The notes under the pieces: generated by a model
Seen by the model: only the letters and a program-made list of their open reading frames with translations
The model's database searches: none
Told to the model about the DNA's origin: nothing
Assembly (NCBI RefSeq): GCF_003790525.1
Contig: NZ_CP033636.1
Source of the DNA: Escherichia coli
GTDB taxonomy: Bacteria > Pseudomonadota > Gammaproteobacteria > Enterobacterales > Enterobacteriaceae
Direction: 5' to 3' (one strand)
DNA length: 64,000 bases
Translations under genes and position numbers: made by a program
Part shown: one piece after another, positions 3,535 through 52,342 of the stretch
Numbering within the stretch: position 1 is the first letter of the stretch
Layout: every line of letters begins with the position of its first letter

Positions 3535-4337
3535 CAACCCCAAGTCAGAGGGTCCAATCGCAGATAGAAGGCAAGGCGTTCGCGGTCGGGGGCTTCGATC
3601 CCCAATACATTGAATAGGACAGCGAAGGCGCGCTCTGCTTCATCTGGCGCTGCCCAGTTCTCTTCGGCGTTAGCAATCATGAGTGCCAAATCGGCATAGC
3701 GATCTGCTGTTCCGAGCCGCCCAAGGTCGATCAGACCCGTGCATTGAAGAGTTTTAGGGTCCACCATGAAGTTCGGCATGCAGGGATCACCATGGCAAAC
3801 AACCATATCGGTGCGCTCTTGGTCGAGCCGCACCGGTAGCTCTCGTTCGACACGAGCCAAAAGATCGAGCTGCGGCGTACTCTTGTCCTCGTCCGGTAAG
3901 AAGTCGGGATTGACGGCATTGCGGGACACCACATCAACGGCGCGTCCGAACATTCGCGACAGCCTGCGCTCAAACGGACATTGATCAACCGATAGGCTGT
4001 GAACAGCGCCAAGTTGCTGCCCCATTGACGGCCACGCTTTGAGCAAATCCGCTCCAGACAGATCAGCCGCCGGTACTCCCGGAATTGCCGTTATCACCAA
4101 GCATGCACCCTCCTGTTCCTCCTGCCAGTTGATCACCTCGGGGCAAGCCACACCTCGACCTTTGAGCCAAATGAGGCGGTCACGCTCTCCAGCGAGCTCA
4201 CCGCGGCGGGAAGCAGGTGCGATTTTCGCGAAGGCATGCCCGTCACCACGTCGAAAAACAAAATCACCAGATTCTCCGCCTCTGACAGGCAACCAGTCAG
4301 AATGCGATTCACCAAAAAAAATATTAGTTCGATTCAA
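3534..4337 (-). CDS. strA: aminoglycoside 3''-phosphotransferase APH(3'')-Ib (streptomycin resistance), TTG start
   Basis: 267-aa product LNRTNIFFGESHSDWLPVRGGESGDFVFRRGDGHAFAKIAPASRRGELAGERDRLIWLKG... within longer ORF. Confidence 0.95.
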   Translation of the reverse strand: MNRTNIFFGESHSDWLPVRGGESGDFVFRRGDGHAFAKIAPASRRGELAGERDRLIWLKGRGVACPEVINWQEEQEGACLVITAIPGVPAADLSGADLLKAWPSMGQQLGAVHSLSVDQCPFERRLSRMFGRAVDVVSRNAVNPDFLPDEDKSTPQLDLLARVERELPVRLDQERTDMVVCHGDPCMPNFMVDPKTLQCTGLIDLGRLGTADRYADLALMIANAEENWAAPDEAERAFAVLFNVLGIEAPDRERLAFYLRLDPLTWG

Positions 4338-28382: not shown

Positions 28383-28790
28383 ATGAATGAAAACTCAGTA
28401 ATCTTAATAAGTTTATTTTGGTTTTTTTTGGGATCGAGTGTTGTAGCTGGTTTTATGGATGCATCATTATATTGCTGGATTTTTGCAGCCATAAGCGCAT
28501 TGTTTCTTCTTTCGGTGATACAAACACCAAAGGAGTTAACGGTATCTATTAGTCATATGACAAGCAAAACGCTGATCTCAAAGACAGATGATGGATACAC
28601 ATTTAGCATTTCACCTTACGGAGACGGGTACCGCTTATCAGTCTCGCCTGAAAATCGTCACAATGGTACCCAAAGCTTTGACGGCTGGTTCCCACGTTTT
28701 TTTTCCGAACCACAGTATGCCAAATCATCTTTAACTAAATTTCTCGGTGAGTCCTTAGTATGGGAAGAAGATTCAAGTAATGCTCTATGA
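28383..28790 (+). CDS. hypothetical membrane protein (135 aa, two N-terminal hydrophobic helices)
   Basis: SD AAGGA upstream; hydrophobic N-terminus ILISLFWFFLGSSVVAGF... Confidence 0.45.
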   Translation: MNENSVILISLFWFFLGSSVVAGFMDASLYCWIFAAISALFLLSVIQTPKELTVSISHMTSKTLISKTDDGYTFSISPYGDGYRLSVSPENRHNGTQSFDGWFPRFFSEPQYAKSSLTKFLGESLVWEEDSSNAL

Positions 28791-28835
28791 GATTACTTAT
28801 TATAAATTTTTCTATTAATCTCCATGGAGTGATAT

Positions 28836-29090
28836 ATGAATTTGGCCTATTTTTTATTTTTGTCTATAACTGTTATGCTTACGAGCTTTATTATTAAATC
28901 ACTTGTCGTATTGGTAAAGTTCAAATTACTTCGTGATGAACGTCTCGAATATACCAGCAATAAAAATATTGATGAGATGTACGATTTAATGAATGCGAAG
29001 GAAGAAATCCTCATAAGGCATCATAAGCAGATGTTGGCATTGCATCTTTCACTATTAATATTCGTTCTATTTATTGCTTACATTTACTAA
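28836..29090 (+). CDS. small hypothetical membrane protein (84 aa)
   Basis: SD GGAG upstream; two hydrophobic segments. Confidence 0.4.
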   Translation: MNLAYFLFLSITVMLTSFIIKSLVVLVKFKLLRDERLEYTSNKNIDEMYDLMNAKEEILIRHHKQMLALHLSLLIFVLFIAYIY

Positions 29091-29127
29091 AAATAATTTT
29101 ATTCAACATTTCAACAAAGGGTTTTCA

Positions 29128-29415
29128 ATGGAAAGCTTCGAAACTGAACAAATGATTCAATATGCTTTCTACATAAATATCGTAATAACGACTGGTTTGG
29201 CATGGTTTTGCTTGCGGTCAGGATTGCATTACAATTTTTTCAGAAAAGCAGAGAGTGCCAGAACAAAAGGGCTGAGTAGTACCTCTACTGAACACGGTCC
29301 AGCAATAGTGAGACTAAAGAAGCTACAAGCATTAGTAGATTTTATTAGTAACTGTGCTTTTCTAATCCTTTCAATTGGCACAGCTTATATTTTGTATGTT
29401 TGGAGCCACAGTTAA
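29128..29415 (+). CDS. small hypothetical membrane protein (95 aa)
   Basis: ATG at 29128 within longer TTG-initiated ORF; two hydrophobic segments. Confidence 0.4.
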   Translation: MESFETEQMIQYAFYINIVITTGLAWFCLRSGLHYNFFRKAESARTKGLSSTSTEHGPAIVRLKKLQALVDFISNCAFLILSIGTAYILYVWSHS

Positions 29416-29484
29416 CTCATACGAGGTAACTTCGGCAGGTAACAACTTCTAATGCAGGACTTTAATAACTCTAAGGGATTCTAC

Positions 29485-29682
29485 ATGAAAAAAGACGATC
29501 TAATTACGCGTTGTAAATTACTTAAAGGCGAACGCGATGAGTCTATCTTTACCATATTAATTGGGATAGTAGTAAAGCTGGGGCTGGTAGGCCTGGCATT
29601 CTATCTGTTGCTTGGTTCCACGATTGATTGGTCAAGCTGGAAAACTTATGCCGCCATGTTGATCTTGGGAGCATTTCTCTAA
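29485..29682 (+). CDS. small hypothetical membrane protein (65 aa)
   Basis: MKKDDLITRCKLLKGERDESIFTILIGIVVKLGLVGLAFYLLLG...; SD AAGGGA upstream. Confidence 0.35.
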   Translation: MKKDDLITRCKLLKGERDESIFTILIGIVVKLGLVGLAFYLLLGSTIDWSSWKTYAAMLILGAFL

Positions 29683-29794
29683 AATCTTGAACCTTTTTTC
29701 ACTCATTACAAGCCATGACCTAGTGCGTAGATCATACGATCTTTAAACCTTATGTCATTGATTTATAAGTACATATAACAAAGATTATGTTAAA

Positions 29795-29812
29795 TACTGT
29801 ATGTATGTACAG
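29795..29812. promoter_or_regulatory. LexA-box-like palindrome (CTGT-N8-ACAG)
   Basis: TACTGTATGTATGTACAG about 200 bp upstream of the 30019 gene; could be chance in AT-rich DNA. Confidence 0.35.
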
Positions 29813-30018
29813 CATCAACAGTTGCCCCCCTCATATTGAGGTAATTGCTACATTCATACCACTATTCTTCTTATAGTATCGACATCCTGAATTATTGCAC
29901 CCTACTGCTTTGTCTTTAGCTGTTCCGAATTAAAATTCATTGCTCAATTTGGATCACATGACGATCAGCGTATTCCTTTGCTTTATCAAAGTTAAGTTTT
30001 TAAAACATAAGATATGTA

Positions 30019-30480
30019 ATGACAAATTCTCAATCTGATTTTCCTTTGAACGATCAAAATTTTCAGGCAGATTTGCTGAAAATCAAAAAGGTTTTCGCCG
30101 ACCTTATAACGCAGGCATCAGATGGTAAGATACCCATAAGGTCTTCTCATGTACACGGCTTACACCATTTCGAGGAGCTCTACATCCGGGCAAGAGCAGG
30201 CATGTGTTCGGTCCTGGGATATCCGGTCATGGTTGTTTCAACTATCTCAGTTAAAGAGCCCGGCACAGGCATTTTTAGAGCGCTTCTTGCAGAATTGAAA
30301 TGTATTGCAGATGAACAAAATTACATTTTGAAAATTGAAAATGTACTGCCTCCCCTATTCCGCAAATACCTTATTCAAGAAGGTTTTGTTTTCCCAGGTG
30401 AACCTTGGATGTGTGGTTCCGGCTATTGGTTTAAGAACCCACAAGTACTTCATGAAAATATTGAGTTATTATCTGTTTAA
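30019..30480 (+). CDS. hypothetical protein (153 aa), possible GNAT-like fold
   Basis: Segment VMVVSTISVKEPGTGIFRALLAEL loosely resembles acetyltransferase motif A; weak. Confidence 0.4.
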   Translation: MTNSQSDFPLNDQNFQADLLKIKKVFADLITQASDGKIPIRSSHVHGLHHFEELYIRARAGMCSVLGYPVMVVSTISVKEPGTGIFRALLAELKCIADEQNYILKIENVLPPLFRKYLIQEGFVFPGEPWMCGSGYWFKNPQVLHENIELLSV

Positions 30481-30509
30481 GTCGATCTAACAATTTCACT
30501 GGAGCTAAC

Positions 30510-30917
30510 ATGTCCCCGGAATTGGTATCAGACATTGCAAGAGTGGCGCATGAAAAGCTACTTTCAATTTTAACGGAGTGCGGCATAGAGAAGACGGCAG
30601 GCACTTGCCTTTTTGCAAGCTATCTTGTGTGTTATTTAGCAAAAACTAAAGGTCTAGATGCTGTTGTCCGTGGGGGTAACGGTGCAGATGATGGCGGTAT
30701 ATTTATAGAGTGTGGTGGCTTTGGCCATTATTGGTGTGAGTTGAATTTCGAAGAAGTGCAATATTATATTGACATCACTTCCGAACAGTTTGGGTTTCAT
30801 CCATACATAGTGAAACTCGCCAACGATATAACAGGATGGCCTCGATATATTCCTGGTGATCAGGAAACGGTCGATAGTCATTTAGAACAATTATTACGCG
30901 ACGGCTATACAGAATAG
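30510..30917 (+). CDS. hypothetical protein (135 aa), possible Cys/His hydrolase
   Basis: SD GGAG upstream; candidate catalytic Cys (AGTCLFASY) and His (GGFGHYWCE); speculative. Confidence 0.4.
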   Translation: MSPELVSDIARVAHEKLLSILTECGIEKTAGTCLFASYLVCYLAKTKGLDAVVRGGNGADDGGIFIECGGFGHYWCELNFEEVQYYIDITSEQFGFHPYIVKLANDITGWPRYIPGDQETVDSHLEQLLRDGYTE

Positions 30918-30967: not shown

Positions 30968-31495
30968 TTAACGGAACCACTCAGGATGACGCTGCCGATC
31001 AACTTTGATAACCTGCGAATTAAATTCAACGACATCCGCTGGAGTAAGCATTAATTCATCAGGATTTACAATAAATGGTCTTAAAACCACTTCGCCACCG
31101 TCTTCTTTTGCACCGTAGATATTAATAAGAAAGTGCAGTCGTTGATTTCCTTCAGCATTGCGTTGCCATTCTCTAAAAGTCAAAGTTTGTTTAATATAGT
31201 TTGTTAAAAGAAATGCGAATTCAGATTCTTCCGTTTGTGAGATACCGATTTTGTTAGACATTTTTTTTAGTATCTTTCCGAGCATGGACACACAGGCATC
31301 TAGACTTAACGATGTTGAAATTTTGGTCGTATTAAAATCCTCCTGCGAAAGTGAAATCATCCATGTATTATCTTTATGATAGTCGGTAATATAAATAAAA
31401 TGAGATGTAAAAGGCGTTGAGTGATTGAACTCTCCTAAGTTCCATCCATACTGACTCACTGTATTTGAGCTAAGTTCTTTGTCGGTAATGTTCAT
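30968..31495 (-). CDS. hypothetical protein (175 aa)
   Basis: ORF with plausible SD; no motif recognised. Confidence 0.45.
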   Translation of the reverse strand: MNITDKELSSNTVSQYGWNLGEFNHSTPFTSHFIYITDYHKDNTWMISLSQEDFNTTKISTSLSLDACVSMLGKILKKMSNKIGISQTEESEFAFLLTNYIKQTLTFREWQRNAEGNQRLHFLINIYGAKEDGGEVVLRPFIVNPDELMLTPADVVEFNSQVIKVDRQRHPEWFR

Positions 31496-42847: not shown

Positions 42848-43667
42848 GGCACTGTTGCAAATAGTCGGTGGTGATAAACTTATCATCCCCTTTTGCTGAT
42901 GGAGCTGCACATGAACCCATTCAAAGGCCGGCATTTTCAGCGTGACATCATTCTGTGGGCCGTACGCTGGTACTGCAAATACGGCATCAGTTACCGTGAG
43001 CTGCAGGAGATGCTGGCTGAACGCGGAGTGAATGTCGATCACTCCACGATTTACCGCTGGGTTCAGCGTTATGCGCCTGAAATGGAAAAACGGCTGCGCT
43101 GGTACTGGCGTAACCCTTCCGATCTTTGCCCGTGGCACATGGATGAAACCTACGTGAAGGTCAATGGCCGCTGGGCGTATCTGTACCGGGCCGTCGACAG
43201 CCGGGGCCGCACTGTCGATTTTTATCTCTCCTCCCGTCGTAACAGCAAAGCTGCATACCGGTTTCTGGGTAAAATCCTCAACAACGTGAAGAAGTGGCAG
43301 ATCCCGCGATTCATCAACACGGATAAAGCGCCCGCCTATGGTCGCGCGCTTGCTCTGCTCAAACGCGAAGGCCGGTGCCCGTCTGACGTTGAACACCGAC
43401 AGATTAAGTACCGGAACAACATGATTGAATGCGATCATGGCAAACTGAAACGGATAATCGGCGCCACGCTGGGATTTAAATCCATGAAGACGGCTTACGC
43501 CACCATCAAAGGTATTGAGGTGATGCGTGCACTACGCAAAGGCCAGGCCTCAGCATTTTATTATGGTGATCCCCTGGGCGAAATGCGCCTGGTAAGCAGA
43601 GTTTTTGAAATGTAAGGCCTTTGAATAAGACAAAAGGCTGCCTCATCGCTAACTTTGCAACAGTGCC
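42848..43667 (+). mobile_element. IS26 copy 5 (820 bp), V171M transposase variant
   Basis: Exact IS26 IRs; flanks tgagaacg / cactagtg. Confidence 0.95.
42911..43615 (+). CDS. tnpA: IS26 transposase, V171M ([10 protein letters not shown]), G184 form
   Basis: Single substitution relative to copies 1, 2, 6. Confidence 0.9.
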
Positions 43668-44673
43668 CACTAGTGAGGGGCGGCAGCGCATCAAGCGGTG
43701 AGCGCACTCCGGCACCGCCAACTTTCAGCACATGCGTGTAAATCATCGTCGTAGAGACGTCGGAATGGCCGAGCAGATCCTGCACGGTTCGAATGTCGTA
43801 ACCGCTGCGGAGCAAGGCCGTCGCGAACGAGTGGCGGAGGGTGTGCGGTGTGGCGGGCTTCGTGATGCCTGCTTGTTCTACGGCACGTTTGAAGGCGCGC
43901 TGAAAGGTCTGGTCATACATGTGATGGCGACGCACGACACCGCTCCGTGGATCGGTCGAATGCGTGTGCTGCGCAAAAACCCAGAACCACGGCCAGGAAT
44001 GCCCGGCGCGCGGATACTTCCGCTCAAGGGCGTCGGGAAGCGCAACGCCGCTGCGGCCCTCGGCCTGGTCCTTCAGCCACCATGCCCGTGCACGCGACAG
44101 CTGCTCGCGCAGGCTGGGTGCCAAGCTCTCGGGTAACATCAAGGCCCGATCCTTGGAGCCCTTGCCCTCCCGCACGATGATCGTGCCGTGATCGAAATCC
44201 AGATCCTTGACCCGCAGTTGCAAACCCTCACTGATCCGCATGCCCGTTCCATACAGAAGCTGGGCGAACAAACGATGCTCGCCTTCCAGAAAACCGAGGA
44301 TGCGAACCACTTCATCCGGGGTCAGCACCACCGGCAAGCGCCGCGACGGCCGAGGTCTTCCGATCTCCTGAAGCCAGGGCAGATCCGTGCACAGCACCTT
44401 GCCGTAGAAGAACAGCAAGGCCGCCAATGCCTGACGATGCGTGGAGACCGAAACCTTGCGCTCGTTCGCCAGCCAGGACAGAAATGCCTCGACTTCGCTG
44501 CTGCCCAAGGTTGCCGGGTGACGCACACCGTGGAAACGGATGAAGGCACGAACCCAGTGGACATAAGCCTGTTCGGTTCGTAAGCTGTAATGCAAGTAGC
44601 GTATGCGCTCACGCAACTGGTCCAGAACCTTGACCGAACGCAGCGGTGGTAACGGCGCAGTGGCGGTTTTCAT
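43668..44673 (-). CDS. intI1: class 1 integron integrase IntI1 (last ~2 codons replaced by IS26 junction)
   Basis: [19 protein letters not shown]...[20 protein letters not shown] then reads into IS26. Confidence 0.9.
44558..44586 (+). promoter_or_regulatory. Pc cassette promoter, PcW configuration
   Basis: TGGACA-17 bp-TAAGCT within intI1 coding region. Confidence 0.6.
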
Positions 44674-44845
44674 GGCTTGTTATGACTGTTTTTTTGTACA
44701 GTCTATGCCTCGGGCATCCAAGCAGCAAGCGCGTTACGCCGTGGGTCGATGTTTGATGTTATGGAGCAGCAACGATGTTACGCAGCAGGGCAGTCGCCCT
44801 AAAACAAAGTTATGCAGCCAAATCCCAACAATTAAGGGTCTTAAA
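44674..44845. other. attI1 region of integron 2 (approximate)
   Basis: Between intI1 start and first cassette ATG. Confidence 0.55.
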
Positions 44846-50868: not shown

Positions 50869-51770
50869 ATATCGGGCGGATCGTGGCCGGCATCACCGGG
50901 GCGACTGGGGCGGTAGCCGGCGCTTATATTGCCGATATCACTGATGGCGATGAGCGCGCGCGGCACTTCGGCTTCATGAGCGCCTGTTTCGGGTTCGGGA
51001 TGGTCGCGGGACCTGTGCTCGGTGGGCTGATGGGCGGTTTCTCCCCCCACGCTCCGTTCTTCGCCGCGGCAGCCTTGAACGGCCTCAATTTCCTGACGGG
51101 CTGTTTCCTTTTGCCGGAGTCGCACAAAGGCGAACGCCGGCCGTTACGCCGGGAGGCTCTCAACCCGCTCGCTTCGTTCCGGTGGGCCCGGGGCATGACC
51201 GTCGTCGCCGCCCTGATGGCGGTCTTCTTCATCATGCAACTTGTCGGACAGGTGCCGGCCGCGCTTTGGGTCATTTTCGGCGAGGATCGCTTTCACTGGG
51301 ACGCGACCACGATCGGCATTTCGCTTGCCGCATTTGGCATTCTGCATTCACTCGCCCAGGCAATGATCACCGGCCCTGTAGCCGCCCGGCTCGGCGAAAG
51401 GCGGGCACTCATGCTCGGAATGATTGCCGACGGCACAGGCTACATCCTGCTTGCCTTCGCGACACGGGGATGGATGGCGTTCCCGATCATGGTCCTGCTT
51501 GCTTCGGGTGGCATCGGAATGCCGGCGCTGCAAGCAATGTTGTCCAGGCAGGTGGATGAGGAACGTCAGGGGCAGCTGCAAGGCTCACTGGCGGCGCTCA
51601 CCAGCCTGACCTCGATCGTCGGACCCCTCCTCTTCACGGCGATCTATGCGGCTTCTATAACAACGTGGAACGGGTGGGCATGGATTGCAGGCGCTGCCCT
51701 CTACTTGCTCTGCCTGCCGGCGCTGCGTCGCGGGCTTTGGAGAAATTCTTCAAATTCCCGTTGCACATAG
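50869..51770 (+). pseudogene. tet(A): tet(A) fragment lacking ~124 N-terminal codons, with altered 3' end
   Basis: Starts ...IGRIVAGITGATGAVAGAYIADITDG...; ends ...LPALRRGLWRNSSNSRCT instead of ...LWSGAGQRADR; one internal difference from full copy (MTVVAAL vs MTVAAAL). Confidence 0.9.
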
Positions 51771-52342
51771 CCCGGCAATTCCTTTCCCTGCTCTGCCATA
51801 AGCGCAGCGAATGCCGGGTAATACTCGTCAACGATCTGATAGAGAAGGGTTTGCTCGGGTCGGTGGCTCTGGTAACGACCAGTATCCCGATCCCGGCTGG
51901 CCGTCCTGGCCGCCACATGAGGCATGTTCCGCGTCCTTGCAATACTGTGTTTACATACAGTCTATCGCTTAGCGGAAAGTTCTTTTACCCTCAGCCGAAA
52001 TGCCTGCCGTTGCTAGACATTGCCAGCCAGTGCCCGTCACTCCGCGGTCTTCACTGCGTGATCGAGTTGATCGACACCCGCCGTGACACGCTCCATGAAG
52101 TGCCTGCCTGCGTCTGTTAGCCGAACGCCCCGCGCATGGCGCTCAAATAGCAGGACACCAAGGTTATCCTCCAGCGCTTTCACACGCGCGCTGACGCTCG
52201 ACTGGCTGATACCAAGTGCCTTGGCCGCATGCCGAAAATTCAGATGCTCGGCGACGGCGATGAACTGAACAAGGGAAATGAGCGGTATCCTGCCAGACAG
52301 GATACCGACATTCACGAGGTTTCGATGGTTAGTGCGCCGCAT
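51771..52342 (-). pseudogene. truncated LysR-family regulator gene downstream of floR
   Basis: 101-aa ORF 52037-52342 carries the N-terminal HTH (…ISLVQFIAVAEHLNFRHAAKALGISQSSVSARVKALEDNLGVLLFERHARGVRLTDAG…); effector domain missing. Confidence 0.6.

Follow-up and report, generated by a model that had tools for sequence, protein, structure and literature searches.

A predicted LexA operator adjoining a dif-like Xer site upstream of a variable gene cluster on IncHI-type plasmids

A predicted LexA operator and its neighbouring Xer site

The window, by which we mean the whole stretch of 64,000 nucleotides analysed here, belongs to an IncHI2 resistance plasmid of Escherichia coli (contig NZ_CP033636.1). 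It carries a LexA (SOS) box, TACTGTATGTATGTACAGCA, which lies upstream of two genes, here called gene 1 and gene 2, and directly adjoins a dif-like Xer site (Table 1). The box is predicted to be a genuine, high-quality LexA operator, and the pair of dif-like site and box was found in four diverged IncHI-type lineages. We read the two elements as a composite that heads a variable accessory cluster on IncHI-type plasmids, with rightward SOS control of the following genes as the favoured mode of action; for this reading the chances seem to us about even.

How good is the site? A first-pass annotation, made from the letters of the window alone, had reported a LexA-box-like site about 200 bp upstream of a pair of open reading frames (ORFs), and had proposed heterology-index scoring as a check. 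Site and ORFs are present as described (TACTGTATGTATGTACAG was located at 29795-29812), and the ATG of gene 1 lies 205 bp downstream of the box. The Berg-von Hippel heterology index was applied to the full 20-mer, with a matrix reconstructed from 26 E. coli LexA sites; bona fide E. coli LexA sites mostly have an index below about 9-12. The window box scores 3.7/4.4, which is the best value in the window and falls inside the range of recA- and sulA-type sites. Under a model of independent, identically distributed bases with local composition, sites that score as well should turn up 0.002-0.006 times per 64 kb. The caution of the first-pass annotation that about one match per 64 kb arises by chance is right for the bare core CTGT-N8-ACAG, of which 0.67 matches are expected and three were found in the window, but it does not extend to the full site.

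Might the palindrome still be an accident of a simple (TGTA)n repeat in an AT-rich sequence? The core is indeed a short simple repeat, C(TGTA)3CAG, which is a caveat on its score, and the expectation for the bare core is not small. Against such an origin stand the rarity of the full-site score and the three other lineages, where the same half-sites occur in the same place around the non-repeat spacers ATGAATGT, ATATATAT and ATATGTAT. We consider a chance palindrome very improbable. What is more, an identical 22-mer, ATACTGTATGTATGTACAGCAT, is found in pKP121-2, where TTGACA-17-TAATGT immediately precedes it and the gene of a colicin-like tRNase bacteriocin (klebicin) lies 45 bp further on; within the klebicin promoter it thus occupies the place that is canonical for SOS operators. 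LexA is well known to control operons of the colicin type. For the window box itself, we infer that it is bound by LexA.

The two other core matches lie elsewhere in the window. GACTGTTTTTTTGTACAGTC, at 44684-44703, is about 10 bp upstream of the start of intI1 (minus-strand ORF 43561-44673) and is the LexA box known from the integrase promoter of class 1 integrons. TACTGTGTTTACATACAGTC, at 51943-51962, has an index of 4.9 on the reverse strand and is a good LexA-like site; it is placed 18 bp upstream of the truncated N-terminus of an ISCR/IS91-like transposase (minus-strand ORF 51701-51925) and also adjoins lysR and a major facilitator superfamily efflux gene (floR, identified by eye).

Table 1. 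Positions of the features; those of the first nine rows refer to the window, those of the last four to the locus named. Loci on other plasmids are cited by L numbers.
Feature	Position	Strand	Basis or remark
Conserved XerC-side sequence, possible accessory sequence	29702-29767		94.7% identity with L005, 75% with the Klebsiella michiganensis plasmid L010
dif-like Xer site, AGTACATATAA-CAAAGA-TTATGTTAAAT, 28 bp	29768-29795	+	scan; match to dif/pdif-like sites of PMC10132070
XerC arm, AGTACATATAA	29768-29778		
Spacer, CAAAGA	29779-29784		
XerD arm, TTATGTTAAAT	29785-29795		
Predicted LexA (SOS) box, TACTGTATGTATGTACAGCA	29795-29814		core CTGT-N8-ACAG at 29797-29812; heterology index and positional homologues in L018, L023 and L025
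Non-coding segment co-travelling with the box, 180 bp	29815-29994	+	94.8% identity in L018; bounded on the right by a rearrangement junction shortly before gene 1
Gene 1, 153 amino acids (aa), predicted GNAT-fold protein	30019-30480	+	AlphaFold2 (predicted local distance difference test 91.2), Foldseek
Gene 2, 135 aa, predicted transglutaminase/papain-like fold, Cys33-His73-Asp88	30510-30917	+	structure prediction
Family B in L002	2450-2947		
Family B in L005	4660-5070		
Family B in L012	3444-3860		
Family B in L023	3011-3520		

The neighbouring site is recognised as dif-like by both of its arms. The XerD arm agrees with the consensus at 11 of 11 positions and the XerC arm with AGTGCGCATAA at 8 of 11, and the CAAAGA spacer is also present in Table 8 of PMC10132070 (Harmer, Pong & Hall 2023). 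In the same table the site of L003, AGTGCGCATAA-TCAGGA-TTATGTAAGAT, is given as a target of ISLad2. That paper further describes dif-like sites on HI1 plasmids and, on an HI1B plasmid, a 'dif module' with a GNAT gene; LexA and SOS are absent from its text. Both pHCM1 and a K. michiganensis plasmid have the 28-bp site of the window unchanged between other flanks, and slightly changed copies are found in L002 and L005. In the scan, a dif-like site in the same orientation lay upstream of the cluster in every locus with a close homologue of gene 1. The homology of the L005 backbone to the window spans a 76-aa ORF on the left and breaks off precisely at 29796, on the left border of the CTGT core. 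On the XerD side the DNA differs in almost every lineage, and directly at the XerC side an insertion sequence (IS) of the IS1202 family (ISLad2 or another ISNCY element) is found in L003, L018 and L009. Both the XerD-side turnover and the IS1202-family elements give indirect support to recombination by XerC/XerD at the site, which we treat as putative. A 29-bp junction motif was at one point taken for the terminal repeat of an IS; this was dropped once the motif proved to agree with the dif/pdif consensus and with sites published as targets of IS1202-family elements.

Only one clear dif-like site was found at the locus. The sole candidate for the second site of a pdif module is the inverted AGTGGTTTTAA-GACCAT-TTATTGTAAAT, at 31064-31091 on the minus strand, which would bracket the box and both genes as such a module does. 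It is probably spurious, because it has six mismatches (4 + 2) and lies in coding sequence, inside a 175-aa ORF (30968-31495).

The dif-like site of L005 (2484-2511) has a neighbour of another kind. A 1.4-kb segment with a 318-aa minus-strand gene lies there between 20-nt inverted repeats (2468-2487 and 3887-3906; 95% complementary), one arm of which ends 4 nt inside the dif-like site. This segment may be a small element that moves or inverts.

The pair of site and box across lineages

The version of the pair found in the window is carried by about 645 plasmids. Here the XerD arm is followed by A-CTGTATGTATGTACAG, and then, after 205 bp, by gene 1 and gene 2. In the Enterobacter hormaechei plasmid pE80014967-1 (L018, about 10 plasmids), which has ISLad2 on the XerC side, the arm is followed by G-CTGTATGAATGTACAG (index 5.2), by the 180-bp leader and then by different genes. 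The Klebsiella pneumoniae IncFIB/IncHI1B plasmid pKPN528-1 (L023, about 305 plasmids) has CCAGA-CTGTATATATATACAG (index 3.4) and, 53 bp further on, ORF104, the first member of a same-strand cluster that also holds a Cys-His-Asp protein of family B (described below), a GNAT with 44% identity to gene 1 and a DUF6884-like protein. In pIMP4_LL34 (L025) the sequence is ACGTA-CTGTATATGTATACAG (index 1.8), with ORF104 56 bp away. Since the spacing from the XerD arm to CTGT is constant (1, 1, 5 and 5 bp in the window, L018, L023 and L025), while the next ORF begins 205, about 430, 53 and 56 bp beyond the box, the box is placed relative to the XerD arm and not to a gene start. When the four versions are aligned, no base changes in the XerD arm or in either LexA half-site; the variation falls in the dif spacer, the centre of the box and the flanks. 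That the half-sites were kept while the spacer varied argues for selection for LexA binding.

Does LexA, then, act on the Xer site? Bound to the box, it could occlude XerD binding or synapsis, alone or besides a role in transcription, and multimer resolution or cluster exchange would become SOS-gated. Such a role would suit a box that, in all four lineages, stays within 1-5 bp of the XerD arm while its distance to the next ORF ranges from 53 to about 430 bp, and it would suit the change of right-side DNA in almost every lineage together with the targeting of the XerC side by IS1202-family elements (PMC10132070). There is also a precedent for cross-talk between an Xer core and a regulatory element that overlaps it: Pcer, the promoter within cer, which in the published model is repressed when XerCD is close by (PMC4393325). 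However, our literature search found no case of LexA controlling Xer recombination, and the adjacency is explained equally well if the Xer core contains a promoter, or if site and box descend together from a common ancestor and the right side was replaced later. Most such dif-like sites, moreover, have no box, and the action of XerCD at the window site is itself putative. We therefore regard a direct effect of LexA on the Xer site as decidedly unlikely.

Within the window lineage the plasmids are nearly clonal, hence they offer little evolutionary signal. About 600 of the roughly 645 retain an intact box. In 17 plasmids from UK pig farms, which form a single clade (L017, CP057739.1 and 16 others), CTGT has become CTGC and the index rises to 7-8; this natural operator-down allele could be used as a ready-made control strain. 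The change in one S. Agona plasmid goes the other way, from ACAGCA to ACAGTA, which is nearer the consensus (index 2.3-3.8). The box may also be split, as in the loci L027 (NZ_CP091471.2) and L026 (NZ_CP036336.1): ISKox3, of the ISL3 family, sits at its exact centre in one IncHI2 plasmid and, independently, in IncHI1B plasmids, each insertion duplicating the 8-bp spacer (ATGTATGT and ATATATAT). It looks as though the palindrome of the LexA box is a preferred target of ISKox3.

What the box may control

There is a further question, namely which transcript such an operator would govern. Rightward SOS control is favoured because all downstream genes lie on the plus strand and because the box is at a canonical distance from the first ORF in the IncHI1B plasmids and in pIMP4_LL34. 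In unstressed cells a LexA dimer would occupy the box and block rightward transcription that starts in or beside the Xer core. The best candidate promoter is TTTATA-18-TATGTT, whose -10 element lies within the XerD arm; the box would sit at about +1 to +17 of it. Upon DNA damage, activated RecA (RecA*) would bring about the self-cleavage of LexA and the downstream genes would be derepressed, and the entry of single-stranded plasmid DNA in conjugation may have the same effect. In the window lineage the genes so released would be those of a GNAT-fold protein and a Cys-His-Asp enzyme. The identity and direction of the promoter, the SOS induction and the enzymatic activity are what we infer here. 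SOS control of the gene pair, as the first-pass annotation had it, is likely as judged from the sequence: the quality of the site supports the proposal, but no plus-strand promoter of at least 9/12 overlaps the box, and the position of the box is set by the dif-like site.

Several observations weigh against rightward control. Besides the lack of a plus-strand sigma-70 promoter of at least 9/12 over the box, the plus-strand candidates reach only 8/12, and their -35 elements are not kept in L018, L023 and L025; a 9/12 match on the minus strand, TGTACA-16-CATAAT, overlaps the box in the window and in L018, though not in L023. Gene 1 starts 205 bp from the box and lacks a clear Shine-Dalgarno sequence. 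In L018 different genes follow this box and leader. As to conservation in homologues, on which the first-pass annotation had made its idea depend, the box does hold the same position in four lineages, in two of them (the IncHI2 lineage of the window and IncHI1B) upstream of GNAT clusters, but in about 10 lineages it is missing from loci that have both the gene cluster and a dif-like site, and no box with an index below 10 was found near the homologous genes in L002-L008, L012-L015, L021, L022 and L024. The CTGC variants and the ISKox3 splits mean that plasmids can survive without the box. Finally, the matrix behind the index is itself a reconstruction.

One alternative takes up the minus-strand match. 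The box might control a leftward promoter, TGTACA (29811-29806), 16 nt and CATAAT (29789-29784), whose transcript would cross the Xer core; in the window it would be antisense to the 76-aa membrane-protein ORF, and in L018 it would head toward the ISLad2 transposase. No other promoter-like match over the box reaches 9/12, the box covers the -35 element and the spacer of this one, and both hexamers are kept in L018, where the transposase of ISLad2 is the next leftward gene. In L023, on the other hand, the -10 element becomes CATAAC and there is no match to the -35; no ORF, Rfam match or stable structure (z = 0.12) was found in the leftward direction; and 9/12 matches are hardly rare in the region, four being found against 4.7 expected from shuffles. 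We give the leftward promoter little credence.

Another explanation is that the box is a relic, once functional or borne there by recombination, and that it regulates nothing in the window lineage after a deletion split off the original first gene. In its favour, the leader ends at a rearrangement junction at about 29994, and gene 1 lies 205 bp away with no clear promoter. The loss of the box by mutation or IS insertion in some plasmids without loss of the plasmid agrees with this, as does the near identity of the roughly 645 plasmids of the lineage, which leaves little evolutionary signal. Yet the box is intact in about 600 of these, one variant has even moved nearer the consensus (ACAGCA to ACAGTA), and the half-sites were retained over four diverged lineages, which argues for continuing selection. 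A relic is in our view unlikely, but not so unlikely that it can be passed over.

The leader itself matched no Rfam family, and on both strands it folds no better than shuffled sequences. Two small ORFs, of 29 aa (29787-29876) and 32 aa (29940-30038), were considered as SOS peptides and rejected, as they are not conserved in L018 (frameshift, different C-terminus). A weak similarity that MAFFT suggested downstream of the box was likewise discarded: aligned locally with the 5' region of IncHI1B and with ORF104, the leader scored no better than shuffles. Two scans of species-representative genomes, one with a 24-mer of the leader and one with the gene-1 profile, gave no match.

The two genes and the shuffled cluster

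What proteins would be put under such control? In matching IncHI2 plasmids such as pSTM6-275 both genes are labelled only 'hypothetical protein', and scans of the two proteins and their neighbours with Pfam, NCBIfam and PHROGs gave nothing above threshold. The acetyltransferase-like motif that the first-pass annotation had noticed in gene 1 is borne out by structure prediction, which gives a GNAT alpha/beta fold. The top Foldseek matches in the PDB are NatD, PaiA, SACOL1063, AcrVA5, TacT and AtaT, all of them GNATs, and the top 50 are almost all GNATs (probability 0.97-1.0, template modelling score 0.40-0.47). The conserved motifs are xGxGxF and an invariant CGSGYW; the loop K-E-P-G-T-G-I-F, with an invariant G84, resembles motif A (Q/R-x-x-G-x-G/A), which binds acetyl-CoA. 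At the sequence level, gene 1 had no Pfam or NCBIfam match, and a profile search of PDB sequences came back empty. Homologues are present in 1697 plasmids, 804 of them from Klebsiella.

For gene 2 the first-pass annotation had picked out a candidate Cys/His dyad, and this has grown into a triad. The predicted core fold has a Cys at the N-terminus of a helix and His and Asp on adjacent strands, and Cys33, His73 and Asp88 are invariant. The protein is predicted to have the fold of the transglutaminase-like/papain-like cysteine enzyme superfamily, with catalysis putative. It has 266 representative clusters, no Pfam family and no sequence relative in the PDB. The only hint of function is a sub-threshold Lar-like domain fused to one relative of gene 2, and an anti-defence, establishment or toxin-antidote role for the two genes is conjecture, as are the toxin or colicin-like functions that the first-pass annotation had raised.

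The GNAT gene keeps varied company. In most other lineages it is accompanied by family B, a second and distantly related Cys-His-Asp family of about 140-170 aa with the motifs ECDGH, PHLW and IDYRLRMW and no Pfam family, whose Cys, His and Asp align with the triad of gene 2. These partners, of the gene-2 family (family A) or of family B, lie downstream or upstream of the GNAT gene, and no antitoxin gene of the ribbon-helix-helix (RHH)/DUF1778 type was found directly upstream of gene 1. The further members of the cluster are variable: ORF104, a trypsin-like protease, the DUF3870-like ORF92 and a DUF6884-like protein. The idea that the GNAT always has a Cys-His-Asp partner was rejected; it is true in 10 contexts and fails for a distant homologue from Nissabacter, which stands alone. 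In R478-like IncHI2 plasmids, in turn, gene 2 is kept alone.

The first-pass annotation had taken gene 1 and gene 2 for a two-gene unit. This view is not supported: as judged by comparison of the loci, the pair is a shortened version of the larger shuffled cluster, a deletion-type remnant. Homology to the fuller versions starts only about 28 bp before the ATG of gene 1 (at about 29985-29991 in L002, L006, L007 and L008). An internal deletion or recombination seems to have removed ORF104, ORF92 and the family-B gene between the head of the cluster and the GNAT gene, with the leader of 205 bp as the outcome.

Comparison with known systems

Five known systems share some features with the composite. 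The SOS promoters of colicins and klebicins are also plasmid-borne and have a LexA box just downstream of the -10 element, and the identical 22-bp operator of pKP121-2 is of this type; the window, however, has no bacteriocin, immunity or lysis gene, its box is single and not double, there is no strong promoter, and the box abuts an Xer site. The class 1 integron offers an SOS box beside a site-specific recombination element on a resistance plasmid, with an example in the same window at 44684-44703. The SOS box of the intI1 integron integrase was reportedly described by Guerin and colleagues in 2009. It differs in that the integron box overlaps the promoter of the integrase, whereas the recombinases concerned here, XerC and XerD, are chromosomal and the box stands beside their predicted site. 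In cer of ColE1, with Pcer and the RNA Rcd, a plasmid Xer site has a candidate transcription signal in or near its core, and occupancy by XerCD is modelled to influence Pcer (PMC4393325); no Rcd-like structured RNA is predicted in the window, the regulator would be LexA, and a role in multimer resolution is putative. The pdif modules and the targets of IS1202-family elements (PMC10132070) have the same kind of site, but the window has one clear copy, the inverted candidate being weak and within an ORF. Lastly, TacT, AtaT and AcrVA5 are small stand-alone GNAT folds among the Foldseek matches of gene 1; they have no sequence-level relationship to it, and in place of an RHH antitoxin gene 1 has an enzyme-like Cys-His-Asp protein as its partner.

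LexA boxes, dif-like sites on plasmids, and the GNAT and transglutaminase folds are already known. What appears to be new is the conserved pairing of an SOS operator with an Xer site where a variable enzyme cluster begins on megaplasmids of IncHI type, together with two unannotated protein families; our literature searches found no description of a composite of dif-like site and LexA box. A more ambitious scenario would make the composite a functional unit, in which SOS is coupled both to the shuffled small enzymes (GNAT, the two Cys-His-Asp families, the trypsin-like protease, DUF6884) and to Xer activity, an establishment or counter-defence set being switched on or exchanged upon entry into a new host or damage to the host DNA. 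We find this scenario improbable.

Why would it matter? Among the major vehicles of mcr-1, of carbapenemase genes and of heavy-metal resistance genes are the IncHI2, IncHI1B and related megaplasmids, most of whose backbone genes bear the annotation 'hypothetical'. If SOS control holds, antibiotics that trigger SOS (quinolones, beta-lactams), and possibly conjugative entry, would switch on uncharacterised plasmid functions. An operator set against an XerC/XerD site also raises the question of a link between SOS and Xer recombination or module exchange on enterobacterial plasmids. The two protein families, gene 1 in about 1700 plasmids and gene 2 in its 266 clusters, have clear predicted catalytic signatures and are candidates for anti-defence, toxin or modification activity.

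Plasmid neighbourhood

Several hundred IncHI2 plasmids from E. coli, Salmonella and further Enterobacterales, pSTM6-275 among them, match the segment 29000-31600 at 100% identity. The region is AT-rich (37% G+C) and is flanked by the pco/sil region and by a Tn3-family/tetA insertion. The box lies in a gap of 336 bp, bordered on the left by the 76-aa ORF (stop at 29682) and on the right by the ATG of gene 1. Directly upstream of the Xer site there is a run of four small plus-strand ORFs (135, 84, 113 and 76 aa; 28383-29682), hydrophobic by eye, and part of one of them reappears beside parM in another plasmid family (L012).

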